DNA from: an uncultured Gemmatimonadales bacterium
Lineage (GTDB): Bacteria; Gemmatimonadota; Gemmatimonadetes; Gemmatimonadales; Gemmatimonadaceae
DNA length: 64,000 nucleotides
Direction of reading: 5' to 3'
Assembly (NCBI GenBank): GCA_963707505.1
Contig: CAVPQB010000006.1
Location: forward strand, 192,001-256,000
Both the position numbers and the translations under genes were made by a program. Below are positions 7,946 through 32,381 of this stretch, in pieces. The notes under the pieces are model-generated. The model worked only from the letters and a program-made list of their open reading frames with translations, was not told the DNA's origin and searched no databases. How positions within the stretch are numbered: position 1 is the stretch's first letter; each line of letters opens with the position of its first letter.

Positions 7946-8243
7946 ATGATCACAGGATTCATTAGCCGAGTAGTTCCGGCAGGCGAGCTGAAGGACGCTC
8001 TGGACGTTGGGACCCAAAGGGTTCGGGCGATCGCTGATCGTGTGTCCAAGGCGTCGCTCCAGAATCAGGACGGCTTCGCTCTTCCGGGCACGCCTGGAGC
8101 TAACGGGGCTGTTACGACCTCGCTCCGGTGTGGACATAGAGAGTGAGATGATCAGTCTGGCCGACGAGCAGCTGCGCTACGAGGCGACATCGAAACTGTT
8201 GTCGAAGGCCTACGATCAGGTTCGAACCGCCCTCAAACCCTGA
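7946..8243 (+). CDS. flgB: Short divergent FlgB-like rod protein (frameshift near 8125)
   Basis: First gene before flgC; N-terminal LKDALDVGTQRVRAIADRV and C-terminal VDIESEMISLADEQLRYEATSKLL match FlgB termini. Confidence 0.7.
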
Positions 8244-8249
8244 TAATCG

Positions 8250-8846
8250 ATGCCTCGTCCAGTCGGATTACTTCCGTCGCCAGCGGCAAACCAGCCACAG
8301 CCGATGTTCCGGTCTCTCGCGATCTCAGCGAGCGGACTGTCGGCGCAGCGGGTTCGCATGGAGACAATCGCATCGAACATCGCAAATGCGGAAACAACGC
8401 ACGACGTAAACGGGCAACCATACCGACGGCGCGTCGCTGTTCTCTCCGCAGGCGACGGTGGGACAACGAACGGCGATCCAGTTGCGCCGGGACAGCCATC
8501 AGGGACTTCGGGCGTGTTCAACGGCGTCAACGCGTTTCAGGTACCGAGCGGCGATTTCCCGGCCGACGGACCGCGTCGCTTCGAGGTGCCGGTGCTCGAG
8601 ACGAACGGGCCGAGTGGCGGTGGCACCGGTGTGCATGTCGCCGGTATCCAGGAAGACAGGACTGACGGGCAACTGGTCTACGATCCGGGACATCCGGATG
8701 CGGACAAGAACGGATATGTGCATTACCCGAACGTGCGGGTGACGGACGAGATGGTGGACATGATGGATGCGCGCCGAGTGTACGAGGCGAACGCCAGCGT
8801 GTTTCAGACGGCGAAGGGAATGCTGAAGCAAGCTCTGAACATTTAA
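8250..8846 (+). CDS. flgC: Basal-body rod protein FlgC
   Basis: ISASGLSAQRVRMETIASNIANAETT, PYRRR, YDPGHPDADKNGYVHYPNV, ARRVYEAN. Confidence 0.96.
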   Translation: MPRPVGLLPSPAANQPQPMFRSLAISASGLSAQRVRMETIASNIANAETTHDVNGQPYRRRVAVLSAGDGGTTNGDPVAPGQPSGTSGVFNGVNAFQVPSGDFPADGPRRFEVPVLETNGPSGGGTGVHVAGIQEDRTDGQLVYDPGHPDADKNGYVHYPNVRVTDEMVDMMDARRVYEANASVFQTAKGMLKQALNI

Positions 8847-8862
8847 GCCACAAGCGACCAGA

Positions 8863-9222
8863 ATGGCGATCAACGGAATTAGCGGCGGCGGGTTCAATCC
8901 ATATGCAACGGGCGTAACGCGTCCGAGTGCGGGCTTGCCGCGCCAGACGACGCAGACGTCGAGCGATGTCGCGGTGGCCGATCCAAAGGCGCTTGCGAAC
9001 GCGATAAAGAGCGACGCGGCGGCCCGAACGGCACAACTGAACTCGGGAACGGCGCCGACTGGCGTGGATCAGGATCTCTGGAGTGTGTTGAGCAAGGAAG
9101 AGCGCTCGTTCTTCATGAAGGCTGGCACGATGGGGCCGTTGACGTACGGCCGCACGAGCTCGTCGCAGAGTCCGGCACCAGCGCCGATTCTGCGTGGCGG
9201 CCGTCTGGACATCAAGGCCTGA
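8863..9222 (+). CDS. Hypothetical protein inside the flagellar operon (119 aa)
   Basis: Fills the flgC-fliE gap with tight spacing; ends in GGRLDIKA. Confidence 0.7.
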   Translation: MAINGISGGGFNPYATGVTRPSAGLPRQTTQTSSDVAVADPKALANAIKSDAAARTAQLNSGTAPTGVDQDLWSVLSKEERSFFMKAGTMGPLTYGRTSSSQSPAPAPILRGGRLDIKA

Positions 9223-9229
9223 GGATCCA

Positions 9230-9556
9230 ATGTCAAATCCAATTGGTGGAATAAGCAGCGCGATCGCGAGCACTGGACTGGACACCGGGGCGAAACAAAT
9301 ACCCGTGTTGCAGGACCGTGGCGGAAGCGCGAGCGGGACGAGTTTCGGCGACACGCTCAAGGGACTCGTCAACAACGTTTCGGACCAGCAGGATGTAGCC
9401 GCCGACTACGCGCAGCGCTTTGCGCGCGGCGAGCCGGTAGAGCTGCATCAGGTGATGGCTGCTTCCGAGGAAGCGTCGATCTCGCTGGAAATGCTGGTAC
9501 AGGTGCGCAACAAGTTTCAGGATGCGTATCGAACGTTGATCAGTATGCAATCGTGA
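9230..9556 (+). CDS. fliE: Hook-basal body protein FliE
   Basis: SFGDTLKGLV, ELHQVMAASEEASISLEMLVQVRNKFQDAYRTLISMQ; GAGGA RBS. Confidence 0.95.
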   Translation: MSNPIGGISSAIASTGLDTGAKQIPVLQDRGGSASGTSFGDTLKGLVNNVSDQQDVAADYAQRFARGEPVELHQVMAASEEASISLEMLVQVRNKFQDAYRTLISMQS

Positions 9557-9579
9557 TCGAGAACCGGGGATTATAAGCC

Positions 9580-11163
9580 GTGGCTGACGCAATTCAGGAC
9601 ATGCTCGATCGCATCGGCGGTCGTCAACGTGCCATGTTGTTGATGGTGGGCGTTGGGGTGGCAGCGGTGATTTTCGGTGTATCGAAATGGGCTACGGCGC
9701 CGGACTGGGTACCGGCCTTCACCAATCAGCCGATCGAGACGGTCGGCCAGATGACGGACAAGCTTACGGCTGCCGGAATCGGGTTCAAGCTTGATCGTGG
9801 CGGCAGCGACATTCTGGTGAGTGCCAACGACGTTGCACGTGCACGGGTGACGCTGGCTCAGGCGGGACTACCGTCGGCTGGACGTCCCGGCATGGAGCTA
9901 TTCGATCAGCCATCGTGGGGGATGACCGACTTCACGCAGCGAATCAACTACAGGCGCGCACTCGAAGGCGAGTTGGAGCGCACGATCGGCAAGATGACAG
10001 GGGTGCAGTCGGCGCAGGTTCATCTCGCGCTGCACGAGCAGGCGACGTTCCGTTCACAGGACAAGCCGGCGAACGCGTCCGTGGTATTGAAGACCGGTGG
10101 CGCCGCGCCATCACAGGATGTCGTGCAGGGTATCGCGCATCTTGTGGCGAGCAGCGTGGACGGGATATCGGCGGACCATGTGACGGTACTCGACGATGCT
10201 GGGAGAATGTTATCCACTCCGGACGATGGCTCGATGGCTTCGCTGACGAACGCGCAGCTCTCGACCCAGCGCGAGGTCGAGGGATATCTACAAACGAAGG
10301 CGGAAGGCCTGGTCGATGACATCGTCGGCACTGGCAATGCGCGTGTTCGTGTATCCGCTGCGCTCAACTTCGACAAGATCGAACGGTCATCGCAGCTGGT
10401 AGACCCCGACAAGCAGGCCACCAGCACGGAGCAGCGTTACGAGATCACGCCTGGAGCGCAAGGCGGCGCTGCGTCGTCGAACGTCGCGATGAGCTATGAC
10501 AATTCCAAGATCACCGAGAACTTCTCCGGAGCGATCGGTAATATCAAGAGACTGTCGGTTGCCGTTCTGCTGAATGACCGCATGATTCCGCCGCCGGCCA
10601 ATGCAGGCGCAAACGCGAAGCCGACGTATGTTGCGCGCACTCCGGAAGAGATCGCGCGTGTGGAGTCGCTGATCCGGGGTGCCGTGGGAGCTGACAGTAC
10701 GCGCGGCGACGTCGTCACGGTGGTCGCGACTCACTTCGACGCGGCACCGGTTGCGGAGATGGATAAGGCCCCGCCACAGACGATCATCAATACCGTTCAG
10801 CAGTTCCAGAAGCCCGCGATATCCGTGCTGGCCATTCTGGTGCTCTTCATCGTCGCGATGATGCTGATCAAGGCGATCAAGTCTCTACCGGCATCAAACT
10901 CACGATCGGCCTATGCCCCGCTCGCGCTTCCTGCACCTGGCGGGCAACACTCCAACCAGTTCGCCACCGCGGCGCACGACATGGCGAACGCGATCGCCGC
11001 CAACGCGCATCAACAGCACCAGAGCTACGCAGTTCAGCCTCCGCCTCAACCGCTCGCGTTTCCGGAACAGAACCAAACTCGTGGTCGCGTAGCGGCAACG
11101 ATTGCGGCCAAGCCTGAAGTCTCGACGCGCGTCGTACGCGCGTGGCTGAAGGAAGCCGTATAA
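9580..11163 (+). CDS. fliF: MS-ring protein FliF
   Basis: GMELFDQPSWGMTDFTQRINYRRALEGELERTI, HLVASSVDG, IKRLSVAVLL; two TM segments. Confidence 0.96.
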   Translation: MADAIQDMLDRIGGRQRAMLLMVGVGVAAVIFGVSKWATAPDWVPAFTNQPIETVGQMTDKLTAAGIGFKLDRGGSDILVSANDVARARVTLAQAGLPSAGRPGMELFDQPSWGMTDFTQRINYRRALEGELERTIGKMTGVQSAQVHLALHEQATFRSQDKPANASVVLKTGGAAPSQDVVQGIAHLVASSVDGISADHVTVLDDAGRMLSTPDDGSMASLTNAQLSTQREVEGYLQTKAEGLVDDIVGTGNARVRVSAALNFDKIERSSQLVDPDKQATSTEQRYEITPGAQGGAASSNVAMSYDNSKITENFSGAIGNIKRLSVAVLLNDRMIPPPANAGANAKPTYVARTPEEIARVESLIRGAVGADSTRGDVVTVVATHFDAAPVAEMDKAPPQTIINTVQQFQKPAISVLAILVLFIVAMMLIKAIKSLPASNSRSAYAPLALPAPGGQHSNQFATAAHDMANAIAANAHQQHQSYAVQPPPQPLAFPEQNQTRGRVAATIAAKPEVSTRVVRAWLKEAV

Positions 11164-12224
11164 ATGGGAACCGCAGTAGTGCCAGTGGAAGAAAAAAGAG
11201 CGTTGCCAGGCTCACCGCCGCCGATCTGACCGGGCCGCAGAAGGTTGCGGTGCTGTGCATGTCGCTCGGTGCTGACGAAGCGGTGAAGCTGACGCAGTCA
11301 CTCACGCCTGAAGAGGCCGAGGAGATCAGCTTCCATATCGCGCAGATGGAGCAGGTAAGCGCCGGCACCGTCGAAGCCGTGCTGACCGAGTGGATGCAGA
11401 TGGCACTCGCAGTCGATTCGATCGCGCAGGGCGGTATCAGCTATGCCGGTGAGGTTCTGGAGAAGGCGTTCGGAAGTCACAGAGCCAGCGCGACGCTGAC
11501 GCGAATTCAGTCGCAGCTCGCCGATTCCGCGGGATTGCACCGCCTACGCAGTGCCGATCCGCAGCAGCTTGCGACGACGCTGCGCGGCGAGCATCCACAG
11601 ACAATCGCTCTCGTTCTCGCGCACCTGGAGCCGCAGCAGACGGCGACGATACTGCGCGATCTGGACCCATCGCTCGGCGGCGAGGTGATGTATCGCATCG
11701 GCTGCATGGAGAAGGTGGCGCCGGATATGATGTTGCTGGTGGAGAAGGCTCTCAGCAACGAAACCGACCTCAGCTTCACGCGTGGCTTGCGCGCGGCTGG
11801 CGGACCGGACGCGGTTGCGAGCGTACTCAACCATGTCTCCGGCTCGCTGGAGAAAGATTTACTCGATCACATCGGGGAGCGGGACACGCAGCTTTGCGAG
11901 CAGATCAAGAATCTCATGTTCGTCTTCGACGACGTGGGCAAGCTGGACGACCGCTCATTGCAGCGACTGCTCCGCGAGATCGACGCTCGTACTCTTTCAC
12001 TCGCTCTCAAGACTGCGAAGGAAGAAATGCGCGAGCGCATCATGGCCGGCATGTCGGCACGCGCGGTCACGGCACTCAAGGAAGAGATATCGATGCTCGG
12101 CGCCGTCCGTGTCCGCGACGTGGAAGCGGCGCAGGCACAGATCGTCGCGCAGGTTCGGGCGCTCGAAGCGGCCGGAGAAATCACCATTGGTGCCGGAGCT
12201 TCGGAAGATGCGTTCATCGAATAG
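11142..12224 (+). CDS. fliG: Motor switch protein FliG (start uncertain)
   Basis: LTGPQKVAVL, EHPQTIALVLAHL, MFVFDD, MSARA, VRVRDVEAAQ. Confidence 0.95.
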   Translation: MAEGSRINGNRSSASGRKKSVARLTAADLTGPQKVAVLCMSLGADEAVKLTQSLTPEEAEEISFHIAQMEQVSAGTVEAVLTEWMQMALAVDSIAQGGISYAGEVLEKAFGSHRASATLTRIQSQLADSAGLHRLRSADPQQLATTLRGEHPQTIALVLAHLEPQQTATILRDLDPSLGGEVMYRIGCMEKVAPDMMLLVEKALSNETDLSFTRGLRAAGGPDAVASVLNHVSGSLEKDLLDHIGERDTQLCEQIKNLMFVFDDVGKLDDRSLQRLLREIDARTLSLALKTAKEEMRERIMAGMSARAVTALKEEISMLGAVRVRDVEAAQAQIVAQVRALEAAGEITIGAGASEDAFIE

Positions 12225-12880
12225 GCCCGGTGTGCTTGCAGCTGGTGCGCTGCCAGCGAATCCGGCGCGATGGACGCCGGATGACATTGCGACGCTCAAC
12301 TGGACAACAGCCGCCAACACGCAGCCCGAGTCGCAGATCGAGCAGGAAGCGCATGCTCGTATCGAGATTGAGCAGCGCGTAGCAGAGGCGCACTCCGCAG
12401 GATACGACGCCGGAAGGCTCGATGGCGAGTTGGCGGAGGCTACACGCCTGCGCGATGCCGTCGCCGCAACTGAAGCAGGCGCTCGACACGATTCGCGCCA
12501 GCGAATTCAAGTGGCAGGCATGCGTTACCGAAAACATCGCGGCTCTCGCTGTTACTGTCGCGCGTCACATCGTCGGACGTGAACTGCGCACCGACGCTGC
12601 TTCCGTTGCGGATCTGGTCAAGCGCGCGCTGGCGGAATTCCCAATCGATCAGCCGATGCGCGTTCGTGTGAACCCACACGATCTATCACTTCTGTCGCAT
12701 CCTACCCCGACCGGCGGCGAGCCTGTCCCCATCGCGCCGAATCGGGACGTTCGCTGGCTTGCAGATTCGCGCATTCAACCTGGCGGGTGTGTCGTCGAGG
12801 GGCGCGAGCGGATCGTGGACGGGCGCGTCGATACGGCACTTGAACGACTCTATCGAAAGTTGACGGACAATGTTGCTTGA
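12208..12880 (+). CDS. fliH: Export protein FliH (frameshift near 12470)
   Basis: AxxxGxxxG repeat (AHSAGYDAGRLDG) in one frame; VRVNPHDL and IQPGGCVVE in the next; between fliG and fliI. Confidence 0.88.
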
Positions 12881-14204
12881 TACCTTTGCGAGTGTCGTTG
12901 CGGATACGCCGCGATTCGATCGGTATGGCCGCGTCACGCGAGTCGTTGGTCTCGTCATCGAGGCAACGGGCATCGACGTGGGCGTCGGCGAGCTGTGTCG
13001 CGTCACGAGCTTGACGGACGACAGGTCGGTGTTGGCCGAAGTCGTCGGGTTCCACGAAGACAACGTCATCCTGATGCCGCTTGGCGAGCTCGATGGCCTG
13101 CACGCTGGAAGCTTCGTGCAGCCACTCGGTCGCTCCTTCGGTGTCGACGTCGGGCCGTCGCTGCTTGGTCGCGTGCTCAATGGCCTCGGACATCCAATCG
13201 ATGACAAGGGCCCCATCGACTTCACCGACCGCGTTCCGCTTGCGGCCGAGCCTCCCAATCCGCTCGAGCGTCGCATGATCGACGAGCCATTGGAGACGGG
13301 CGTTCGTGCAATCGACGGGATGCTGACGATCGGTCGCGGTCAGCGCGTCGGAATATTCGCCGGATCGGGCGTTGGCAAGAGCACGCTACTCGGCATGATC
13401 GCACGACACGCCAAGGCCGACGTCAACGTAATCGCGCTACTCGGCGAGCGCGGCCGCGAGGTACGTGACTTCATCGAGCACTCGCTTGGCGAGGAAGGAC
13501 TTGCTCGCTCCGTAATAATTGTCGCTACCGGCGACCAGGCAGCGCTGGTTCGTGCTCGCGGCGCGCTCGTGGCGACCGCAATCGCTGAATATTTTCGCGA
13601 TCAGGGCAAGCAGGTGATGCTGATGCTCGATTCAGTTACACGTGTAGCAATGGCGTGGCGCGAGATCGGGCTGGCAACTGGCGAGCCACCGACCACGAAG
13701 GGTTACCCCCCTTCGGTGTTCGCATCACTTCCGCGCCTTCTGGAGCGTGCGGGGAACGCGCGTGTCGGCGGCATCACGGGCATTTACACGGTGCTGGTGG
13801 ATGGCGACGACTTCAACGAACCAGTTGCTGATGCAACGCGCTCCATACTCGACGGTCACATCGTGCTCACTCGCAAGCTGGCATCGGCGGGTCACTTCCC
13901 TTCCATCGACATACTCGAAAGCAAGAGCCGAGTTCGTGATCAGGTAGTGTCATCGGGCCATCGTACGGCCGCGGAAACGATTCTTCGTACCGAGGCAACG
14001 TATCGCGAGAAGGAAGATCTCATCCTCGTGGGCGCGTACCAGAAAGGAACAAGTGCGACGGTGGACTCCGCTGTGGAGCATCGCGACGCGGTGCTGTCCT
14101 TATTGCGGCAGCGTGCGGACGAAACCACGACTATCGGCGAGACCCATGCGACGATGCGCGATCTCGCCGCACGCATCACCGCCTCTAACCGGCAGGCGGC
14201 GTAA
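12870..14204 (+). CDS. fliI: Flagellar export ATPase FliI
   Basis: GIFAGSGVGKSTLLGMIAR, GERGREV, DSVTRVAMA, GEPPTTKGYPPS, RSILDGHIVL. Confidence 0.97.
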   Translation: MLLDTFASVVADTPRFDRYGRVTRVVGLVIEATGIDVGVGELCRVTSLTDDRSVLAEVVGFHEDNVILMPLGELDGLHAGSFVQPLGRSFGVDVGPSLLGRVLNGLGHPIDDKGPIDFTDRVPLAAEPPNPLERRMIDEPLETGVRAIDGMLTIGRGQRVGIFAGSGVGKSTLLGMIARHAKADVNVIALLGERGREVRDFIEHSLGEEGLARSVIIVATGDQAALVRARGALVATAIAEYFRDQGKQVMLMLDSVTRVAMAWREIGLATGEPPTTKGYPPSVFASLPRLLERAGNARVGGITGIYTVLVDGDDFNEPVADATRSILDGHIVLTRKLASAGHFPSIDILESKSRVRDQVVSSGHRTAAETILRTEATYREKEDLILVGAYQKGTSATVDSAVEHRDAVLSLLRQRADETTTIGETHATMRDLAARITASNRQAA

Positions 14205-14206
14205 CG

Positions 14207-14647
14207 ATGTTTCGATTTCGTCTTCAGCAGGTTCTGGATCTCAGAGAGAAGCAGGAGCGTCATCTCGCAACTCAACTCGCCGCCGCTATCGGAGCTGAGC
14301 GCGAGGCGAAAGACGCGCTCAACGGCCTCCGCGCGGAACGGGAAGCTGGCTCCGAGGTCGTGAAGGAAGGTCAGAGCCATTCGGTTGGCGAGCTTGCGAA
14401 TCTCGCATTCATGATGCAGCAGCTCGATGACAGAATCGCCGGAGCGAACGATACAGTCAGCGCTGCGAATAGTAGTGTCTCGCAGGTGCAGGAAGCACTT
14501 ACCGCAGCGTTCAAGGATCGCCGCGTTCTGGATCGTCTTCGTGAGCGGCACGAAGAGACATATCGCGCAACTGCGGAGCAGACAGACCGGAGAGCAATGG
14601 ATGACATCGCGCTCTCGCGCTTCGTGCACAACGACAACGGGCAATGA
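14207..14647 (+). CDS. fliJ: Export protein FliJ
   Basis: MFRFRLQQVLDLRE start, coiled coil, C-terminal MDDIAL; follows fliI. Confidence 0.92.
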   Translation: MFRFRLQQVLDLREKQERHLATQLAAAIGAEREAKDALNGLRAEREAGSEVVKEGQSHSVGELANLAFMMQQLDDRIAGANDTVSAANSSVSQVQEALTAAFKDRRVLDRLRERHEETYRATAEQTDRRAMDDIALSRFVHNDNGQ

Positions 14648-15328
14648 AGAAACTCTTAATTCCATTCATCGCGTCATTCGGCCTGAGCCTCGGTATCGCG
14701 ACCGGCGTAGTGATGGTTCGCGCGCCAAAGCCGGTGGTTTCAGCGACAACCGACAAGGTGGCGGCGGCAAATCAGAAGCCGGATTCCGCCGTAACTGCGA
14801 AGGACAGCGTTACAACGCTGGCGACCGACTCGGCCAACTCCGTCAGCGCGGTGTCAACTGCGCAGACAGCCAGTGCGAATGGCGCGGGCTCTTCTGGCGC
14901 AGGCATTTCGCCTGGAGCAGCAGCCGGCTCCGGTCGCCGCCGCGACGGCGCCAGCCAGTCATGATGTGGCGCCTGGGCCGGATAAGGCGCCCAAATCGGG
15001 GCCGCCAGGTTCTGCGACGCGAGCACCGAGTGTGAAGCTCGCCTCGACTGCCCCGTCCGGCAGCGCTGCACCCAAGCCGGTGATTCCGACTGTGAGGCCA
15101 GCGACGGACTCGCTCATCGGCCGACGCCTCGCGCAGGTATTTGGCGCGATGCAGCCAAAGGATGCCGCGCGTGTCCTCGAGCAGATGGATGACAACGACG
15201 TTCGCGCGATACTGGGCTCGCTATCGAGCAAGCAACAGGCCGCCATCCTTGGATCCTTTCCGACTCAACGAGCCGCACTCATCCTGCAGGCAACGCTGCG
15301 CACGGCATCTAGCGGCGGCACGGAATGA
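14644..15328 (+). CDS. MotE/FlbB(YlxF)-like protein, N-terminal TM plus MgtE-N-like helices (frameshift near 14935)
   Basis: TM N-terminus, low-complexity linker, C-terminal RLAQVFGAMQPKDAARVLEQMDDNDVRAILGSLSSKQQAAIL; typical position after fliJ. Confidence 0.8.
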
Positions 15329-16927
15329 ACATGCTACCGGTCAACTTCGCCTCTGCAGAACCGACATCGGTCGAGCCGGCGTCGTCATCGCGCTCCAAGC
15401 GCGACGCGGAAGGTCCGAGCACGTCGGGTACGAATGCATTCGCCGCCACCCTCGCAACAGCGATGCATGCGCCCGCCGCTCACGCCGCGAAGCTAAAGAA
15501 GGAAGGCGCTGATTCCGAGCTCGACGCGCGTACATCCAGCGCTGCATCCAATGCTGCATCCAGTGCTGCATCCAATGCTGCATCCAATGCTGCATCCAAG
15601 ACCGGCGCGTCTGGCGTCGGCACTGGGGCTCACGCCGGAAAGCCGGCCTTCGCTGCAGCCGCGGAAGCGCGCGCAGCCGCGGCCGCTGCTCCCGTCGACA
15701 GCCCCAACGCCGACGCCGACGCGCTCAATCCGGACTTCCGCACGCGGCTTGCCCGCGTGGTGAGTCGAATGCACGATGAGTTTGGCAAGGACGTCGATCT
15801 CGTTGAAGGATTCAGAACTCAGTCGCGACAGGATCACCTCTACGATCAGGGACGCGTGAGTCCTGGCGAGGTCGTGACCTGGACCAAGGCGAGCAAGCAC
15901 ACGCTCGGGCTCGCGGCAGACGTCACCATCGACGGGGGATACACCGACACCGCGGGTTTCCAGCAGCTGGCGCAGATCGCCGCGCAGGAAGGACTTCGCA
16001 CACTCGGTCCAAAGGATCCGGGTCACATCGAAATGCCGACGCGCGGAGGAGCAGCTGCGTGGGGCGACGCCAATCCCATCGACAGTGTGAACATCGATGA
16101 CAATGTGTCTCGCGCAATCGGTATCGCCATGGATCAGAGCAATGTGACCGGCAATGCGCACGACGACAGCGACAGTCTCAACAACTTCAATGGCCTGCTC
16201 AGCAGAGTTGGCCGCAGTACGTCTACTGGAATGCCGCAGATCCAGATGCCAATGATGTCCGGTAGCGGAATGGCCGGCAACGGAATGACCGGTAACGGTG
16301 GTGGAATGTCCGGCAACATGTCTCAGCGCGATCGTGGAGACAGTCTGAAGGATAGCGCCATATCTGGCGACACGGCGAAAGTCGCCGACGTCGCAAGCGT
16401 TGCATCGGTTGCTCAGGTAGCGCAGGTGGCACACGTCGCTGCGCCGGCGCAACCGATGGTCATCGGGGCGCAGATGCCTCAGACCGTACAGGTAGCCAGC
16501 GGTACGGATGCCGCCGACAAGGTCGGCAAGCTGCTGGATGCGCGCGACGCGGCACCAGCGCAACCGCTCTCGCAGGTGACCCTCAACGTCGACAACGCAG
16601 CCGGCGGTTCTGACAAGATCACGGTTCAGCTGCGTGCCGGCGTCGTGGACACGGCAATATCAGTTGGCAGATCCGAATCGCGCAGACAAGATGTCGTTGC
16701 GTGTCGGAGAATTGCAGCACGCATTGGAGCAGCACGGACTGGATGCAACGGCTATCAACGTCGCATCCACGTCGGCTGGCTCAGGGCCGGGATGGAACCC
16801 GCGCCAAGGCAGCGATCAGAGCGCCCAGAACGGGCGCCCTTCGCTCAATTACCGGGACAACCGACAGGACGCGGATGCGACCCGACAGCGCTCTCGTAGA
16901 GAGCAGCAGGGAGGAAGACAGAAATGA
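15325..16927 (+). CDS. fliK: Hook-length control protein FliK-like with internal M15 peptidoglycan endopeptidase domain (frameshift near 16665)
   Basis: Position just before flgD-flgE; long low-complexity body; C-terminal VTLNVD...KITVQLRAGVVDTAISV|ADPNRADKMSLRVGELQHALEQHGLDATAINV is FliK-like; internal EGFRTQSRQDHLYDQGR, SKHTLGLAAD, DPGHIE is M15-like. Confidence 0.8.
15541..15600 (+). repeat. 12-bp tandem repeat, 5 copies (AASN/AASS)
   Basis: gctgcatccaat gctgcatccagt gctgcatccaat gctgcatccaat gctgcatccaag. Confidence 0.95.
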
Positions 16928-17256
16928 TTACCGCGCCCACTGGCGGCATCGCCCCGATGCGTGACACGAACGCACCGAACTCCTCGTCGGGTTCGGCAAG
17001 CAACGCGATCACCAACGCAGCAGGCGGTGCTATGGGAAAGGACCAGTTCGTCAAGTTGCTCGTGACGGAAATGCAGAACCAGGATCCTATGAATCCGATG
17101 GACGGAAAGGATCTCGCTGCGCAGCTGGCGCAGTTCTCGAGCGTCGAGCAGTTGATGAACATCAACACCAAACTCGACAACTTCGCTACGCTGTTCGCGC
17201 CGGCGACCCCGAATTCGGGCTCAACGGCCTCGAACTCATCGACCGCGGGCGCGTAA
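16924..17256 (+). CDS. flgD: Hook capping protein FlgD, short form
   Basis: MGKDQFVKLLVTEMQNQDPMNPMDGKDLAAQLAQFSSVEQL. Confidence 0.94.
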   Translation: MITAPTGGIAPMRDTNAPNSSSGSASNAITNAAGGAMGKDQFVKLLVTEMQNQDPMNPMDGKDLAAQLAQFSSVEQLMNINTKLDNFATLFAPATPNSGSTASNSSTAGA

Positions 17257-17298
17257 GCGCCTGAATGACCATACACACACTCATAGGACTTTAACGAC

Positions 17299-18639
17299 AT
17301 GGATCGCTCGCTATTCTCCGCCGTATCGGGGCTGCGGAATAATCAGACCCGAATGGACGTCATCGGTAACAACATCGCGAACGTCAACACGACGGCATTC
17401 AAGGCAAGTCGTGCAAACTTCACGGAGAGCTTCTCGCAGGTTCTCTCCGGCGCGACGCGCCCGGGCACCACGACAGGCGGCATCAACTCGATGGCCGTCG
17501 GACTCGGCTCTCAGCTAAGCAGCATCGACACCGTCTTCACGCAGGGAAACCGCGAGACGACCAACGTCCCGACCAACCTCGCGATACAGGGAAATTCATT
17601 CTTCGTCGTCTCGAACGGCGCGCAGAACTCGTTCACGCGCGACGGTAACTTCAAGTGGGATTCCAACGGCACGCTCGTCGCAGGCAATGGCGGAATCGTC
17701 CAGGGCCTGATGGCGAAGAACGGCGTCCTCGGCGGAGGTCTCACCGGCATCTCGGTGCCGATCGGCCAGACCACTCCTGCAGCGGCGACCACCAAGGCGA
17801 CGGTCGCCGGCAACTTCAACTCCGAAGCGCCGACCATCGTCGCGGTCGATCCAAATAATCCGACCGCCGCCGAGCTTGCTGACCCGGTGAACGCGGGCTC
17901 GAAGGTCGAGACCACGCTCGGTGTCTTTGACTCGCTCGGCTCAAAGCACGACCTCACGCTCGTGGCCTGGAAAACCGGCCCGAACACGTGGGAGTGCAAG
18001 ATCGATCCGACCAGCCTGAACTACGACGCGACAAAACCATATACTTTCGGACCGGGCGCCCAGTCGTCGCCGGCAGCCGCCGCGACCCCGTGGCAGTTCA
18101 CGTTCAAGAGCGACGGCACGATCGATTCCGCGAATTCCAATCTGCCGAGTGTGACGTTTACACCGGCCGGCGGCGGCGCCGCCGTTTCACTCAAGCTCGA
18201 TCCCGGCACCGGCTCGACGGGCGTCACGTCGCTTGCCGTCGGAAATTCCGCGGTGCTTCGCGACCAGAACGGCTACGCATCAGGTGTTCTGCAGAACGTA
18301 TCGATCGGTCAGGACGGAGTCGTAACTGGATCCTTCTCGAACGGCACCAACCAGACGCTCGCACAGATCGCACTCGCGGACTTCAACAATCCCGAGGGTC
18401 TGGATCAGGCCGCCGACAGTATGTATACGGTCTCCGCGAACTCGGGAACGCCCCTGATCGGCTACTCGGGAAAGGACACCACCTCGACGATTGCGAGCGG
18501 AGCGCTCGAAATGTCGAACGTCGATCTGGCGCAGGAATTCACCGACATGATCATCACGCAGCGCGGCTTCGAAGCCAATGGCAAGATGATCACTACGAGC
18601 GACCAGATGCTTCAGACTCTGATAAACATGCGTCAGTAG
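17299..18639 (+). CDS. flgE: Flagellar hook protein FlgE
   Basis: SLFSAVSGL...MDVIGNNIANVNT, FTRDGNF, FDSLGSKH, LEMSNVDLAQEFTDMIITQRGFEAN. Confidence 0.96.
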   Translation: MDRSLFSAVSGLRNNQTRMDVIGNNIANVNTTAFKASRANFTESFSQVLSGATRPGTTTGGINSMAVGLGSQLSSIDTVFTQGNRETTNVPTNLAIQGNSFFVVSNGAQNSFTRDGNFKWDSNGTLVAGNGGIVQGLMAKNGVLGGGLTGISVPIGQTTPAAATTKATVAGNFNSEAPTIVAVDPNNPTAAELADPVNAGSKVETTLGVFDSLGSKHDLTLVAWKTGPNTWECKIDPTSLNYDATKPYTFGPGAQSSPAAAATPWQFTFKSDGTIDSANSNLPSVTFTPAGGGAAVSLKLDPGTGSTGVTSLAVGNSAVLRDQNGYASGVLQNVSIGQDGVVTGSFSNGTNQTLAQIALADFNNPEGLDQAADSMYTVSANSGTPLIGYSGKDTTSTIASGALEMSNVDLAQEFTDMIITQRGFEANGKMITTSDQMLQTLINMRQ

Positions 18640-18673
18640 TGATGTAGAACAGTCGCACGAAGATTCACTGCTG

Positions 18674-18847
18674 CGGCAACATTAGCCGAGGGCAGCCCGG
18701 AAGAAATTGCCGGGCTGCCCTTTTTTGTCCATCATGCGCCTCCCGTGCAGGAACCGGTCCCAATGACGCAACTGCTTATAACACAATCACTTAGCGTGTT
18801 GGATAATCCGTGCCAGACCGCCTCTGAAGCGTGGTATGTCGCCTGCT
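18674..18847 (+). promoter_or_regulatory. Sigma54 promoter of the fliL operon with enhancer dyads and IHF-like box
   Basis: TGGTATGTCGCCTGCT (GG 18833-34, GC 18845-46); dyads cggcaacattagccg 18674-88 and cggaagaaattgccg 18698-712; CAATCACTTA 18784-93. Confidence 0.75.
18690..18726 (+). terminator. Rho-independent terminator after flgE
   Basis: gggcagcccgg-aagaaattg-ccgggctgccc followed by tttttt. Confidence 0.85.
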
Positions 18848-18899
18848 TTTACGGGGTCTGCGAAGTCCGCGATAGAACTACTTCCGAAAGGCGACACGC

Positions 18900-19442
18900 A
18901 TGGCAGAAGAGAAACCACCAGAGACTGAACCAGCCGCCCCGCCGGCCGCCAAGGGCGGTATGGCGAGGCTGTTACCGCTGATCGGCGGCATCGTTGGAGG
19001 TCTCGCTCTTGGCGCAGTCCTCGGATTCACGCTGCTCGGTCCCAAACTCTCGCACAAGGCTGTGGCTGCACCGGCTAGCGCGGACAGTGCGGCGGCCGTC
19101 AAGAAGGAAAGCGGGCCAGAGGCCAAGAAGGGCGACGCTCCGCCGCCGATCTATCAGGTGGACAACCTTGTAATGAATCCCGCTGGCTCGGGCGGCTCCC
19201 ACTTCCTGTTGATGTCGGTTGCGTTGCAACTCAAGGACGCCAGCTCGTTGGAGACTATCAAGGGACGTGACGCCGAGCTGCGCGACGCGATCCTCCGGCT
19301 CTTCTCGCGAAAGACCAACGATCAGATATCCGACATTTCAGCCAGGGACCAGTTCGCTGCTGAATTGATGGCCGTGCTGGACAGGATGTTCGGTGCCGGC
19401 ACAGTCGCGAAGATTTACTTCCCTCAGTTCGTAGTTCAGTGA
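18900..19442 (+). CDS. fliL: FliL
   Basis: N-terminal TM, LVMNPAGSGGSHFL, LRDAILRLFS, KIYFPQFVVQ. Confidence 0.92.
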   Translation: MAEEKPPETEPAAPPAAKGGMARLLPLIGGIVGGLALGAVLGFTLLGPKLSHKAVAAPASADSAAAVKKESGPEAKKGDAPPPIYQVDNLVMNPAGSGGSHFLLMSVALQLKDASSLETIKGRDAELRDAILRLFSRKTNDQISDISARDQFAAELMAVLDRMFGAGTVAKIYFPQFVVQ

Positions 19443-20527
19443 GCGCCGACGCACGCCCGATGGCATCGGGCACGCTCTCGCAGAGCGAGATCGACCGCCT
19501 ACTGGGCGGTGCGAGCAACGTTCCGTTCGCCGGCGCGTCGGAAGAATCGCCAGTCCAGATGTACGACTTTCGCCGCCCGCACCGCGTTTCGAAGGAGCGT
19601 CTGCGGACGCTGGAGGCGATTTACGAGCGACTGGTGAAGTCGCTCGAGAGCTGGGTGATTGGTCGCGTACGGGGACAGATCGAGATGCGGCTGCAGGGTG
19701 TCGAGCAGTTCTCGTTCGGCGAGTTCACGCTGTCGCTTCCGACGCCGTGCGCGTCGTTCATCTGCGAGATCAACGACTCCGGTGGACAGCTGGGCGTCGT
19801 CGATATTGGTGAGGAGTTCGCCTTCTATATGGTGGACCGCCTCTTCGGTGGCAGTGGCCAGCAGATGTCGACATCGCGGCCGCTCACGCGTGTGGAGCGC
19901 ATGGCGCTGCGGGGCCTGGTCGACAAGGTCAACTCGCTGCTCGCGGAAGTCTGGTCCGACTACATAACGATGTCGCTGGAGATCAGCTCGTTCGAGTCGT
20001 TCCCGGACATTCTGCTTCAGAGCGCGAACCGTGACGATCCGGTTCTCGTCGCGAACATCGAGGTGACAGCGGGTGACGTCAGCTCGCTGATGCTCGTATG
20101 CCTTCCGTTCGCGGTGCTTGACAAGTTCTTCACCAACACGGCGACACGCAGCTTCGCGAATGCAACTGGCTCCGAGCACGAGCGCGCAGTCAGTCGTGCG
20201 CTCGCTGAACACTCGCTGCGTGCCACGCGCGTCAACGTGTCCGCGCGGCTCCCTGAATTTCGCATGTCGATGCGCGACCTTGCCTCGCTGTCTCAGGGTG
20301 GTGTCATCACGACTGCGTTACCGAGCAACAGTCCCATCCGCGTCATGGTCGGCGACCAGGAGCGTTTCGCCGGAACCGCTGGACGTGTGGGTCACAAGCT
20401 CGCCATTCGTCTCGAGGGCGCCCTCACACAGTCGGGTGAAGTCCGAGGTGCAGCACCAGTTGTCCCACAATTCGATGCTTCGGTGATCGCCGAAGCGCTT
20501 CAAACCCAACCGATCTCCGCCGAGTAA
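19439..20527 (+). CDS. fliM: Motor switch protein FliM
   Basis: LSQSEIDRLL CheY-binding peptide, YDFRRPHRVSKERLRTL, VDRLFGG. Confidence 0.95.
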   Translation: MSADARPMASGTLSQSEIDRLLGGASNVPFAGASEESPVQMYDFRRPHRVSKERLRTLEAIYERLVKSLESWVIGRVRGQIEMRLQGVEQFSFGEFTLSLPTPCASFICEINDSGGQLGVVDIGEEFAFYMVDRLFGGSGQQMSTSRPLTRVERMALRGLVDKVNSLLAEVWSDYITMSLEISSFESFPDILLQSANRDDPVLVANIEVTAGDVSSLMLVCLPFAVLDKFFTNTATRSFANATGSEHERAVSRALAEHSLRATRVNVSARLPEFRMSMRDLASLSQGGVITTALPSNSPIRVMVGDQERFAGTAGRVGHKLAIRLEGALTQSGEVRGAAPVVPQFDASVIAEALQTQPISAE

Positions 20528-20528
20528 C

Positions 20529-20870
20529 ATGGACCAGAATGTGAACGCCGCCGCTGGCGCCGAATCTATCAACGCAGTGGACGCTGGACTTGCCGGCGTC
20601 AACGACGAAGTGCCCATCTCGATGCTGCTCGATCTCACGCTTCCGATATCGATCGAGCTCGGCAGGACGTCGATGACCGTGCAGGACATTCTGCGCCTCG
20701 GGCGCGGTTCCGTGATTCAGCTGGATCGGCTCGCGGGCGAGCCAATCGATGTATTCGTTGGAGATCGTCGATTTGCAGAGGGCGAGGTCGTCCTGTTCGG
20801 TGAGACGTTCGGTGTGCGCATCACACGAATCCTCCCACGCGCCAACGCAGTGGAGGAAATCGCAGCGTGA
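20529..20870 (+). CDS. fliN: Motor switch protein FliN
   Basis: LLDLTLPISIELGRT, GSVIQLDRLAGEP, GEVV...FGVRIT. Confidence 0.95.
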   Translation: MDQNVNAAAGAESINAVDAGLAGVNDEVPISMLLDLTLPISIELGRTSMTVQDILRLGRGSVIQLDRLAGEPIDVFVGDRRFAEGEVVLFGETFGVRITRILPRANAVEEIAA

Positions 20871-21379
20871 GTGCTCCTTCGTTCCTGATGGTCATGGCGA
20901 TGCTAGCCATCGTGCTCGGCGCGATGGGTATTGCAATGCGTGTGCTGCGACGCTACGCAATGACCAACGCATCGAAGAAAGGCAGCGTCAAGATGGAAAT
21001 CGTCCAGCGGCTGTCGCTCGGTCAGCGCCAGGGACTCGCGGTGGTGCGCATCGGTACGCGCCTGCTCGCCGTGTCGATGGGCGAGGGTGGAGTTCACCAG
21101 GTCGCGGAGCTGGGCGAGGCCGATCTCGCATCGACGGCTGATGCAGCAAAGGCAGCGGCAAGCGCGCCGATTCACGCGATCGCAGACGGGATTCGCAAGC
21201 TGGTTCTGATCCGCGGTAACGGCGAAGCCACGCCGAAGTACACATCGGGCGGCAACGTGTTGGATGGGTCCGCAGCAGCTCGTAGCGGCAAGAAGGATGG
21301 CAAGCGCATTTCCTACGTCGCGCCCATGGAAGACTTCCAGGCCGTGCTGAGCATGGCAATGGCGGGCGGTACCAAGTAG
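20867..21379 (+). CDS. fliO: FliO/FliZ export protein
   Basis: N-terminal TM then IVQRLSLGQRQGLAVVRIG; between fliN and fliP. Confidence 0.85.
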   Translation: MSAPSFLMVMAMLAIVLGAMGIAMRVLRRYAMTNASKKGSVKMEIVQRLSLGQRQGLAVVRIGTRLLAVSMGEGGVHQVAELGEADLASTADAAKAAASAPIHAIADGIRKLVLIRGNGEATPKYTSGGNVLDGSAAARSGKKDGKRISYVAPMEDFQAVLSMAMAGGTK

Positions 21380-22458
21380 TGACGACTCGCGGCGTTGTCA
21401 TTGGACTTGCAACTCTGCTGGCGTTCGCGCCGGCGAGCGCGTCGTTGCTCGCGCAGGTGCCGGCACAAACTGCGGCTCAGGGCGCGAATACGGCACCAGC
21501 GGGAGCCAGCGCCGCAAGCGCGCTTCAGTCCATTGCGAACTCGACGAATGTCGCAGCGCCGCAGTCTGCCGTTCAGCAGTCGACCGCACAGCCAAACGCG
21601 ATCCCACAGCCGCCAAGGATCACGGCGCCAGCGACGAACGCGGCAGCCGGAGGCACGGCCGGTACGCGCGCCGCGCGCGCCGCGGCTCAACCGGCTGCAC
21701 CGAAGACCGCCAACACAGCGGCAGCGAATGCGCCGTTGACTCCGTCGCCCAGCGTGGACAACATGGTCTCCAAGTTGACGCCTCAGATGGATCTGCGCGT
21801 CGGCGGCGGCAAGGACGACGGTGGTCTTCGTCTGAGCGGAACGGTCGGCATCGTTGTGATGATGGGACTGCTGACGTTGCTCCCGACGCTCGTGCTCCTG
21901 ATGACGGGCTTCACGCGCATCCTCATCGTACTCAACTTCCTTCGCCAGGCGCTCGGCACGCAGAACGCTCCGCCGGCACAGATGGTCGCCGCGCTGTCGC
22001 TCATCCTCACCGGATTCGTGATGGCACCGACGCTCAACAAGGTGAATGAGACCGCGCTACAGCCGTGGATGAACGGCAAGATCGAGCAGGGTGAGATGAT
22101 GAAGATCGCAGTCGTGCCGTTCCGCGAATTCATGCTCGCGCATACGCGTGATCACGACCTGCAGGTGTTCATCGACATGAGCAGCGGCGTCGCTCCGCAC
22201 AATGAAGACGAGATTCCGCTCGTGACGCTGGTGTCCGCATTCGCGACGAGCGAGCTGCGCACGGCATTCCAGATCGGCTTTGCATTGTTCCTGCCGTTCA
22301 TCATCATCGACATCGTCGTGTCGAGCGTGCTGATGAGCATGGGCATGTTCATGCTTCCGCCGGCGATGATCTCGCTGCCGTTCAAGTTGCTGCTCTTCGT
22401 CCTCGTGGACGGCTGGACACTCGTCGTCCAGTCGCTCGTGACCAGCTTCCGCGTCTAG
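21379..22458 (+). CDS. fliP: Export gate protein FliP with long Ala/Pro-rich N-terminal extension
   Basis: MTGFTRILIVL, ALGTQNAPP, AFATSELRTAFQIGF, MGMFMLPPAMISLPFKLLLFVLVDGW. Confidence 0.96.
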   Translation: MTTRGVVIGLATLLAFAPASASLLAQVPAQTAAQGANTAPAGASAASALQSIANSTNVAAPQSAVQQSTAQPNAIPQPPRITAPATNAAAGGTAGTRAARAAAQPAAPKTANTAAANAPLTPSPSVDNMVSKLTPQMDLRVGGGKDDGGLRLSGTVGIVVMMGLLTLLPTLVLLMTGFTRILIVLNFLRQALGTQNAPPAQMVAALSLILTGFVMAPTLNKVNETALQPWMNGKIEQGEMMKIAVVPFREFMLAHTRDHDLQVFIDMSSGVAPHNEDEIPLVTLVSAFATSELRTAFQIGFALFLPFIIIDIVVSSVLMSMGMFMLPPAMISLPFKLLLFVLVDGWTLVVQSLVTSFRV

Positions 22459-22461
22459 AGC

Positions 22462-22732
22462 ATGTCACACGTCCTCGTCGTCGATCTCGCGCGCAACATG
22501 ATCATGACAGCGCTGCTCGATCGCGTCGCCGATGCTGGTCGTCGCGCTCGCTGTCGGTCTGGTCATATCGATCATCCAGGCGGTGACACAGATCCAGGAG
22601 CAGACGCTCTCGTTCGTTCCCAAGCTCGTCGCTGTCGCGGTTACGTTCATCATCGCGCTGCCGTGGATCATCCAGATCATGGTCAAGTACACGAGCGAGC
22701 TGTTTCGCTCACTGCCGTCCATGATTTCGTGA
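22462..22732 (+). CDS. fliQ: Export gate protein FliQ (frameshift near 22520)
   Basis: VGLVISIIQAVTQIQEQTLSFVPKL. Confidence 0.93.
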
Positions 22733-23528
22733 CCGACGTCCGCCCATTCGATCTGTTCGCGCCCGGTTCCGGGACCGTGGCCGTGCTCGTCGCATTGCGT
22801 CTCACAGGACTCATGCTCATCGCACCGGTATTCTCGGCTGCGACGGTGCCGGTCAAGTGGCGCACTTCGCTTCTGATAGTGCTGACGATCGTGATCCAGC
22901 CCATCGCGTATGCGCAACATGCGCGTGATCCCGCAGATCACGCCGTCATCCGGCGATGGGCGAGCTGCTCGTGGGCTTCGGGATCGGACTCGGCGCTGCG
23001 CTGTTGGTCGGCGCGGCTGAAAGTGCGGGCGACCTGTTGGCAATCCAGATCGGACTGTCGGGCGCGTCACTGCTCGATCCGCTCACCCGGCAGACGTCGC
23101 CCGTGCTGGCGAACTTTCTATCGCTGTTCGCGATAACGATTCTTCTCGCGCTCAACGTGCACCTCGGCATGATCGAGGCGCTCGCTGCAAGCCTCCGCGC
23201 CGTGCCGGTCGGCAGCGCGCTGGACCTTCACGCAGGACTCGCAAATCTTCTCGCACTTGCGAGTACGCTGTTCCTCGCCGGACTCAGATTCGCGGCGCCG
23301 GTCATCGCAACCGTAATGATTGGTAATGCGGCGCTCGCGGTACTCAGTCGCGCGACGCCGCAGCTGAACATTCTTTCCGTTGCCTTCCCGCTTCAGATCG
23401 GACTGGGTCTGTTCGCGCTCGGCATCGCTCTCCCATTCATCGCCAGCACGCTCGGCAACTGGCCGACCGCTTACGATCAGCAGCTCTCATCGTTCTTCAC
23501 GGCGATCGCGCCGGGAGGCATGCACTGA
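22729..23528 (+). CDS. fliR: Export gate protein FliR (frameshift near 22930)
   Basis: RLTGLMLIAPVFS in one frame; GELLVG, AGDLLAIQIGL, RATPQLNILSVAFP in the next. Confidence 0.92.
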
Positions 23529-23530
23529 GC

Positions 23531-30936: not shown

Positions 30937-32027
30937 GGCGCAAACTCGAAACGATTACCGTTGCACTCGGCTGCTTCGCGCTGCTCGCGTTCCAGGCAGG
31001 CGCACAATCAGCGCGCATTCGCGATATAACGATGGCCGATGGATCGATGCCTGTTCGCCTGCTCGGCTACGGCATCGTAGTGGGCCTGGACGGGACCGGT
31101 GATCGTGGCATCGGCGGACAACAGGGTGGCCAGACTGTTCAGTCAGTCGCGAACCTTCTGCGTCGCTTCGACATCGAGATTCCCGCCGAAGCGCTTCGGA
31201 CACGCAACGCTGCTGCCGTGCTCGTTACGGCCGAAGTGTCGCCGTATCTGAGGGCCGGCGGAAAGTTCGACATCACCATCTCGTCGCTCGGCGATGCTCG
31301 CTCGCTGCGCGGAGGGACGCTGTGGATGACTCCACTGGTGACCGATGCAGGCGCGCAGGCAGTTGGAACTGCGCAGGGCTCGATCGTCATAAGCGACGGC
31401 AACATCAACTCGCGCGACTTCAATACCGTGGAGACATCGGGACGCATCCCGAGCGGTGGCTTGCTCGAAGGGTCGGTGACGACGGCGAGCTTCGCCAATT
31501 CGTCGCGACTTCTATTGAAAGAGCCTGACATTGGAACCGCGACCAAAATCGTCGCGGCGATCAATCAGGCGATCGGCGCGAATACCGCAAAGGTGGAAGA
31601 TCCCGGCTCTGTCGAGCTTACGCTCCCGACAACCGGCGACCGCGCGACCACCATCGTCAAGATTCAGGATCTCAAGGTCACTCCGGACCGATCCAACAAG
31701 CTCGTCATCGATGGACGCGACGGAACCGTGGTGGCGGGTGGCGACATGACAGTAGGTGAAGCGGTGGTGAGCCACGGCGGGGTCACGCTGACGATTGGCG
31801 GCCCTGCCGCAGCGCCGGCTGGTCCATCGGCGGCAGCGGCCGGACCGCCGGGGCCGAATGCGGCGGGCGGTGGTGGAAACCAGGCTGTGCGAGTCGCAAC
31901 GGGCGCGTCGGTTCAGGCCGTAGCGGCGGCATTGCAGGCGGTTCAGACATCGCCATCCGAAATCGCGGCGATCTTCGAAGCCCTGCGCGAAGTGGGAGCG
32001 CTCGCCGCCGAGGTCACTATCAGATGA
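30933..32027 (+). CDS. flgI: P-ring protein FlgI
   Basis: LLGYGIVVGLDGTGD, NAAAVLVTA, SSLGDARSLRGGTL, GTVVAG, VGALAAE. Confidence 0.96.
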   Translation: MRRKLETITVALGCFALLAFQAGAQSARIRDITMADGSMPVRLLGYGIVVGLDGTGDRGIGGQQGGQTVQSVANLLRRFDIEIPAEALRTRNAAAVLVTAEVSPYLRAGGKFDITISSLGDARSLRGGTLWMTPLVTDAGAQAVGTAQGSIVISDGNINSRDFNTVETSGRIPSGGLLEGSVTTASFANSSRLLLKEPDIGTATKIVAAINQAIGANTAKVEDPGSVELTLPTTGDRATTIVKIQDLKVTPDRSNKLVIDGRDGTVVAGGDMTVGEAVVSHGGVTLTIGGPAAAPAGPSAAAAGPPGPNAAGGGGNQAVRVATGASVQAVAAALQAVQTSPSEIAAIFEALREVGALAAEVTIR

Positions 32028-32381
32028 CGCCGATCGGCGGGCCGGCACCAGTCCGTAACAGTACGCCTATGGATCCCGTCGCAGCTGCCCAGGATGCCAA
32101 GCTACACAAGGTATCGAGCCAGCTGGAGGGCGTCTTCGTGCAGGAGATGTACAAGTCGATGCGCGCGACCGTACCAAGCGGACGGACTGTTCGACGGTGG
32201 AACTGGTGAAGAAATGTTTACAGGAATGCTGGACGAACACGTTGCTGCCGATACTCCACAACACTGGAAGCATGGCCTGAGTGAGTCGATATACCGGCAA
32301 CTCCGGGAGAAGATACACGCTCAGAATCCATCGCTTCCACCTGACAGCAGCCTCGTGACGGCGACCAGCGTGGACAAGTGA
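32024..32381 (+). CDS. flgJ: FlgJ, rod-binding domain only (frameshift near 32178)
   Basis: KLHKVSSQLEGVFVQEMYKSMRATVP|DGLFDGGTGEEMFTGMLDE...GLSESIYRQL; about 118 aa, no muramidase domain. Confidence 0.88.

Follow-up and report, generated by a model that had tools for sequence, protein, structure and literature searches.

A predicted cell-wall peptidase inside the flagellar hook-length ruler FliK of a Gemmatimonadota clade

The flagellar hook-length ruler FliK of an uncultured Gemmatimonadales bacterium carries, within its chain, a zinc peptidase domain of the M15 family. The gene lies in a stretch of 64,000 nucleotides, hereafter the window (assembly GCA_963707505.1, contig CAVPQB010000006.1, positions 192,001 to 256,000 of the forward strand), in which a sequence-only reading had first proposed the fusion. 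Here we find that the fusion is real, that it recurs in a conserved family with an invariant catalytic set, and that it co-occurs with a rod-binding protein, FlgJ, that has no hydrolase domain of its own. We put at roughly 55% the probability that the domain cuts peptidoglycan stem peptides at the point of contact between the flagellar rod and the wall, in place of the hydrolase that FlgJ lacks.

How the rod passes through the peptidoglycan is still an open question for many bacteria with a hydrolase-less FlgJ, and M15-FliK is a specific, conserved candidate for this task. It also offers a natural example of an enzyme carried within a type III ruler, with consequences for the questions of how folded inserts are accommodated in rulers and how hydrolysis of the wall may stay confined without a dedicated regulator. 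Both parts belong to known families, and FlgJ already offers a precedent for a hydrolase fused to an early export substrate; judged from the sequence, the carrier is new and the bond predicted to be cut is a different one. As the sequence-only reading had supposed, full-text literature searches, outside whose coverage most subscription papers fall, turned up no description of a natural FliK with a hydrolase or other enzyme domain.

The fliK gene of the window

The fusion is encoded by a single open reading frame (ORF) on the + strand (15325-16899, 524 aa), with no stop codon between its M15 and FliK parts. The features of the gene are listed below.

15325..16927, + strand: fliK, with the M15 peptidase domain inside the gene; deposited in two frames, 15325-16899 and 16634-16927; ~533 codons discounting one extra base
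15439..15453, + strand: F39-A-A-T-L, a Phe-x-x-x-hydrophobic motif placed where early substrates have their export phenylalanine
15637..16044, + strand: M15 (LAS-family) zinc peptidase domain of the Ply500/LysB4 type, with an N-terminal helix counted in; core at 15706-16038
15814..15816, + strand: Arg164, equivalent of the oxyanion residue Arg50 of LysB4 as aligned to LysB4/Ply500; invariant in homologues; role from PMC6354061
15892..15921, + strand: SxHxxGxAxD motif (as defined in PMC6354061) with the zinc ligands His192 (15898) and Asp199 (15919)
16015..16026, + strand: DxxH motif with Asp231 (16015), putative catalytic base, and His234 (16024), putative third zinc ligand, equivalences drawn from spacing and fold
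16381..16443, + strand: (Val/Ile-Ala-x)7 tripeptide repeat in the linker between the domains
16501..16771, + strand: C-terminal (T3S4) switch domain of FliK, which the frameshift divides (16501-16677 in the ORF frame, 16661-16771 in the +1 frame, stop at 16927)
16666..16668, + strand: single extra base shifting the fliK frame, located by comparison with relatives

The three segments EGFRTQSRQDHLYDQGR (15805-15855), ASKHTLGLAAD (15889-15921) and KDPGHIE (16012-16032) share one frame within the ORF. The residues picked out from the letters alone, His 15898, Asp 15919, Asp 16015 and His 16024, stand exactly as claimed, and the conserved Arg falls at 15814.

The frameshift lies inside the FliK C-terminal domain and not between the M15 and FliK domains. 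Compared with the relative L032 (~91% DNA identity), the window has nine single-base indels in 20.7 kb, eight of them insertions, one of which falls at ~16667. The extra base is missing from 17/17 other aligned locus rows (some rows being the same genome twice) and from the contigs of all three DNA runs that cover the site, which come from related strains and not from the window strain. The extra base is most likely an assembly error, as had been proposed for a frameshift near 16665. The closest homologues, P0002-P0007, are intact single ORFs with 95-98% identity in the peptidase domain. Many single-base frameshifts, typical of an unpolished assembly, are seen across the flagellar cluster (8123-25453 and 32024-32381); they occur near the flgB position, fliG, fliH, the MgtE_N gene, fliK, fliQ, fliR and flhA, and flgJ and flgH also appear split.

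A separate canonical fliK, which would have spoken against the fusion being the ruler, was not detected in the window genome, which is 83% complete: a lineage profile for FliK's C-terminal domain (A3) matches a single locus there, fliK itself, in two pieces, and a Pfam Flg_hook search gave no credible other locus. A scan for promoters and terminators yielded nothing above chance, and in the RNA run that was mapped 146 bases were covered, at the 3' end only, too little to count as evidence of expression.

Identity of the peptidase domain

Pfam and NCBIfam profiles applied to the window ORF alone stay below threshold, so that assigning the domains required intact homologues, lineage profiles and folds. 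VanY scores 17.4 bits (E 0.004, under the cut-off of 25), and the VanY/VanXY profiles of both collections match weakly, far below cut-off. Peptidase_M15_4 has no match on the window protein and one among 82 homologues, at E 0.006 and below cut-off. Flg_hook likewise has no match on the frameshifted window ORF; it is found at E<=0.1 in 68/82 homologues, five of them above the curated cut-off.

Other comparisons lift the assignment above chance and show the nearest relatives. Profile matches of the domain reach E 2.5e-12 for LysB4 and 4.8e-12 for Ply500, a second profile comparison gives E ~1e-11 for these two against 0.04 or worse for VanX, VanY and LdcB, and PHROG endolysin families match with E down to 4e-14. 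Single-chain models were built with 37 and 143 sequences. In that of the intact homologue P0002, two confident domains (residues 100-232 and 382-470) are predicted within a disordered chain, and the P0055 model gives the same two-domain picture. The modelled M15 domain of P0002 superimposes on Ply500 (2vo9) with Z 12.5 and a root-mean-square deviation (rmsd) of 3.7 over 123 aligned residues, and on LysB4 (6akv) with Z 12.0 and rmsd 3.0 over 119, compared to Z <= 9.2 for the VanX, VanY and LdcB folds. Ply500 and LysB4 are thus the best matches in both sequence and fold, and the proposed M15C-type assignment holds by likeness.

The arrangement of residues agrees with this assignment. In the window peptidase, SxHxxGxAxD starts at S190 and R164 lies 28 residues ahead of H192. 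LysB4 employs Arg50, His80, Asp87, Asp129 and His132, with R50Q and D129A abolishing activity (PMC6354061), and the D120A variant of ChiX is inactive (PMC5778951). The window domain has the same residue set as LysB4 with matching spacing, and by spacing and fold Asp231 appears equivalent to LysB4 Asp129 and ChiX Asp120. VanX has Glu181 as base where LysB4 has Asp129 (PMC6354061); identity as a VanX/VanY D,D-peptidase (M15B/D) was rejected because the base before the third zinc ligand is Asp231, not Glu. Given that residue set and spacing match LysB4 and ChiX, the domain should work like an L-Ala-D-Glu endopeptidase, a specificity that we infer from its closest solved relatives, Ply500 and LysB4. 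Stand-alone look-alikes of the domain are mostly phage proteins, which hints at its capture from a phage without proving it.

The ruler part

The N-terminal part of FliK is long and disordered in the models. A Phe-x-x-x-hydrophobic motif like that at Phe39 is present in 130 of the 133 aligned rows that have a residue at this place (143 rows in all), with a median position of 37, and no Sec-type hydrophobic leader is found in the window FliK, the maximum hydropathy being 0.7 compared to 2.59 for FlgI. The export signals of FlgD and FlgB include a Phe at 36-45 (PMC9307174), and by analogy we infer that the Phe39 motif serves this purpose here.

The C-terminal domain predicted from sequence is borne out by the model of P0002, which shows a T3S4 fold in residues 382-470 (pLDDT, the model's confidence score, ~86-94) alongside the M15 fold, and by the lineage profile, which matches the window locus. 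Foldseek retrieves FliK-C (2rrl, E 5.9e-4) and PscP (5cuk, E 2e-3); the corresponding Z scores of 7.1 each are middling, though they form the top rows for the region, with rmsd 3.6 and 2.5 Å over 72 and 66 residues, respectively.

In the linker between the two domains, the (Val/Ile-Ala-x)n repeat reaches at least five units in 69 of 77 loci (within L032-L111) and in 125/133 representatives (P0084-P0216), with a maximum of three units in 21 FliKs without intact M15 (the two nested lineages G176 and G011, described below, included) and four in shuffled sequences. By sequence, the repeat travels with the intact peptidase. It is unstructured in the P0002 and P0055 models (pLDDT ~40-55), which are uninformative on docking to the peptidase, and our best guess is a putative wall-binding or self-restraining segment. 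The repeat often ends in VAxPG.

Conservation of the fusion

A search with the peptidase part returned 83 proteins, of which all have SxHxxGxAxD and 82 have DxxH. A scan of species genomes gave 164 relatives, of which the best 80 loci were analysed. Both domains lie in one ORF in 77 of these, the remaining three being two contig ends and one frameshift. The fusion also occurs in L109, a locus titled Gemmatimonas phototrophica, and thus in a cultured carrier. The strict SxHxxGxAxD pattern is kept in 79/80, and the remaining locus has lost the Gly but retains His and Asp. fliK is directly followed by flgD in 75/80 and has fliJ upstream in 72/80, the misses being mostly contig ends. Two unpublished genomes, G007 and G017, belong to the 24 matched relatives, and the 80 loci may include them again; none of the claims depends on these two alone. 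A further profile search of 50%-identity representatives gave 525 matches at E<=1e-30, and among the best 150, 133 were new. All 133, at <50% identity, have both domains and all catalytic motifs, the catalytic Arg and Asp being as invariant as the zinc ligands. The concern that the catalytic residues might not be conserved is thereby answered.

FliK varies widely in length around the fixed peptidase domain. Over 77 loci the median identity is 60% in the M15 domain compared to 38% in the switch domain, and among 14 close loci the ratio of nonsynonymous to synonymous substitution (dN/dS) is 0.05 for M15, 0.08 for the switch domain and 0.21 for the linker, all rough values with synonymous sites near saturation. 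The sequence comparison indicates strong purifying selection on the M15 domain. By their titles, 77 of the best 80 matches are Gemmatimonadota-type and one is a 3.5-kb contig titled Chloroflexales (L043), which is probably misbinned; with a lineage-specific search pattern, fusions outside Gemmatimonadota were not found among these best 80 of 164, and the full-length matches in the atlas are Gemmatimonadota clusters. On one contig, a further protein (P0071) unites the FliK peptidase's N-terminal half with the FlhA C-terminal part (FHIPEP); it is probably a chimera or deletion. The database names of the fusion proteins are only 'M15 family metallopeptidase', 'CwlK' or 'hypothetical', and the fliK of this clade is therefore being missed.

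Distribution and the state of FlgJ

Across a sample of 221 genomes of the phylum, 56 have flgD and are taken as flagellated, and 165 have not. A strong M15 match is found in 22 of the 56, always within 1.6 kb of flgD (22/22), and in none of the 165. A phylum-wide range is accordingly rejected. By family, and leaving out the window genome, the fusion is present in f1 (19/21), f4 (1/1) and f7 (1/1), but absent from f2 (0/23) and from f10 (0/9), which belongs to another class.

The rod-binding protein of the window is encoded apart from fliK:

32024..32381, + strand: flgJ, rod-binding domain only; separate short gene without hydrolase domain, in two frames in the assembly

A short FlgJ of this kind is the rule, and the suspected association with a muramidase-less FlgJ is borne out: in 46/46 other flagellated genomes of the class FlgJ ends right after the rod-binding domain (32 were cut out and read, 14 judged by open frames <=168 aa). 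No glucosaminidase family match was found in the window genome at its 83% completeness, and among 55 genomes only one has such a match, away from the flagellar contig. Three SLT genes are present in the window genome, all on contigs other than the flagellar one. In f10, by contrast, FlgJ combines the rod-binding domain with an SLT lytic transglycosylase in one ORF (9/9), and there is no M15-FliK match. M15-FliK is thus complementary to the FlgJ-SLT of the other class and co-occurs with hydrolase-less FlgJ. The rule that a short FlgJ implies M15-FliK was rejected, as f2 combines short FlgJ with an M15-less FliK. The FlgJ-SLT of f10 is not the enteric-type glucosaminidase (L154:5287-6162, L155:5335-6219, L156:4831-5703, L179-L184). 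The other class (L125, L126, L127, L128, L133) has a FliK of ~950-1030 aa and a FlgE of ~1035 aa, both much longer than in the window class.

In flagellar-gene trees rooted on f10, the M15 carriers and two lineages that have lost the domain group together (support 99-100) with f2 as their sister, which favours a single gain of M15 after f2 split off. The data do not reject a topology that unites f2 and the f1-type clade (p-AU 0.0525), so that f2 may instead have lost the domain. No other hydrolase is fused to FliK in the 21 FliKs scanned from M15-less lineages.

Proposed role and alternatives

The single-ORF fusion, the invariant catalytic set, the fliK position, the hydrolase-less FlgJ, the Phe motif and the lack of a Sec leader all support a cut at the rod. 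In the mechanism we propose, the flagellar type III channel would export FliK as an unfolded chain, led by its N-terminus, as soon as rod assembly begins. As long as the rod tip is periplasmic, the chain would be released there, and the M15 domain would fold, bind zinc and cleave L-Ala-D-Glu bonds, loosening cross-links near the tip. After the outer membrane has been crossed, FliK would leave the cell and wall cutting would stop by itself, with the C-terminal domain still acting as the length switch. Delivery to the periplasm would then coincide with the passage of the rod through the wall, and would be greater if the rod stalled; afterwards FliK would be vented to the outside. Two lines of evidence make such delivery during rod growth plausible: Salmonella FliK-Bla data (PMC13344023) and the complementary FlgJ-SLT of another class. 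A bolder version, which we hold tentatively at a little below even odds, is that the ruler is also a drill: FliK with a domesticated phage-lysin-type endopeptidase would open the wall for the rod, the geometry of export would by itself limit cutting in place and time, and the (Val-Ala-x)n repeat would be a dedicated partner module. If true, this would be a way through the wall unlike that of FlgJ fusions or of separate transglycosylases, and one in which peptide and not glycan is cut.

Several observations weigh against a cut at the rod. The sister family f2, with an equally short FlgJ, has no M15 match at fliK in any of its 23 flagellated genomes (14 FliKs were cut out and checked), and no wall hydrolase was seen in f2 clusters among 45 of 58 unassigned ORFs and one alternative frame from six genomes, several without a Pfam match, a result that falls short of proving absence. 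Of two lineages that nest within the M15 clade, G176 (L132:4833-6551) has a decayed domain without zinc ligands and G011 (L112:14420-16354) no M15 remnant (probability 0.7%), and both have kept the flagellar genes examined. On account of f2 and these two lineages, the domain is probably an aid to assembly and not a requirement in every lineage. The complementary FlgJ/FliK pattern further reduces to very few independent events, roughly a single gain plus two or three absences, because kin are not independent and dozens of genomes count as few observations. SLT genes are present in every genome tested (55/55), FlgJ with a single domain is common and in other bacteria can rely on separate hydrolases (PMC6913195, PMC8517470), and the flagellum-exported hydrolase CwlQ of B. 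subtilis is dispensable for assembly (10.1101/2021.01.13.426625). If the domain folded and took up zinc while still in the cytoplasm, it could also resist export, and ChiX is thought to fold before export (PMC5778951).

The absence or loss of M15 in f2, G011 and G176, with no substitute seen, would suit an auxiliary function, a serious though rather unlikely alternative in which the exported active peptidase loosens the wall around the finished basal body (for rotation, P-ring or stator seating, or surface motility) and housekeeping lytic transglycosylases make way for the rod. The ubiquitous SLT genes and the CwlQ precedent fit such a function, but FliK is an early substrate and enters the periplasm for the most part ahead of outer-membrane crossing (PMC13344023), which suits rod growth better than later steps, and the complementary FlgJ-SLT of the other class also argues against it. 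It is improbable that FliK, secreted during hook growth, carries an endolysin-like enzyme to nearby bacteria and attacks or scavenges their walls, even though its nearest stand-alone relatives are phage endolysins and much of the FliK leaves the cell while the hook grows.

We consider it equally doubtful that the domain has a role without cutting, either as a peptidoglycan-binding anchor or as a folded pause element tuning the speed of FliK export and hence the timing of the switch. Variable FliK lengths around a fixed domain, and the proposal that a folded FliK-C region acts as switch timer in Salmonella (PMC13344023), are consistent with it; a purely structural role, however, would tolerate loss of the catalytic Arg and Asp, which are invariant in 133/133. 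That two genes were joined by an assembly error, or that fliK is dead in the window strain, is very hard to credit. The window gene is frameshifted and reads of the exact window strain were not found, but the break is within the FliK domain, nine similar one-base indels are spread across the cluster, contigs of related strains are without the extra base, and single intact ORFs occur in 77/80 loci; for the family, the sequences refute this explanation. Returning to the cut at the rod, three states in one phylum (FlgJ-SLT, M15-FliK and neither seen) make a comparative test possible.

Neighbouring genes

The gene order in the window is fliI, fliJ, MgtE_N-domain gene, fliK, flgD, flgE. The genes flanking fliK are as follows.

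14207..14647, + strand: fliJ (Pfam FliJ E 3.3e-14; TIGR02473)
14644..15328, + strand: MgtE_N-domain flagellar gene, with a frameshift at ~14934; 3' end overlaps the fliK start
16924..17256, + strand: flgD, hook cap (Pfam FlgD E 2.6e-24); 5' end overlaps the fliK stop
17299..18639, + strand: flgE, hook protein

The FlgD of the window (16924-17256) is 110 aa long and consists of the N-terminal domain alone, whereas most relatives have a FlgD of ~215-270 aa that includes Ig and Tudor-like domains; the short form is shared within the genus, with open frames of 113-121 aa. Elsewhere in the window, a FliD-family gene at 359-3469 is unusually long (~1035 aa) and has two FliD_C matches. A small gene at 8863-9222, between flgC and fliE, has no Pfam match and is found at the same place in f1 and f2 clusters (L112, L151, L152, L165, L167). 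Between flhA and fliA, 26733-27287 holds a short FlhG/MinD-like relic (184 aa, no Pfam match), which, unlike in f2 clusters, is not preceded by an FlhF gene.

Comparison with known systems

With FliK of Salmonella and E. coli and the PscP/YscP rulers (PF02120), the window protein shares the T3S4-type C-terminal fold, a long low-complexity N-terminal part, the place before flgD-flgE and the lack of a Sec leader; it differs in that its ruler part holds a folded enzyme domain of ~135 residues and the (Val-Ala-x)n repeat. The Arg / SxHxxGxAxD / DxxH set is held in common with the M15C endopeptidases Ply500 (2vo9), LysB4 (6akv), ChiX (5opz), LysECD7 (8q2g) and CwlK, as is the flap sequence LYxQGRTxPG. 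In contrast to these enzymes, the window domain has no cell-wall-binding domain, holin or signal peptide, lies inside a flagellar export substrate, falls below Pfam cut-offs and is a predicted enzyme. ChiX, which opens the wall for secretion, is the nearest functional analogue but uses a holin.

In other bacteria, flagella with hydrolase-less FlgJ are served by lytic transglycosylases that, unlike the FliK peptidase, stand alone. SltF of Rhodobacter is reportedly one of them, and BB0259 of Borrelia, reported to interact with FlgJ, and CwlQ of B. subtilis are described in the same role. CwlQ is exported by the flagellar system, as is proposed for the FliK peptidase, and is not needed for assembly. 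A further parallel is dual-domain FlgJ, both in enterics and as the FlgJ-SLT of the other class, which likewise fuses a wall hydrolase to an early flagellar export substrate delivered through the rod. M15-FliK is itself no dual-domain FlgJ, as the rod-binding domain of the window is the separate short gene at 32024-32381 and is not joined to M15. Compared to dual-domain FlgJ, its carrier is a transient ruler and not a resident cap, and the predicted cut is in the peptide stem and not in the glycan.

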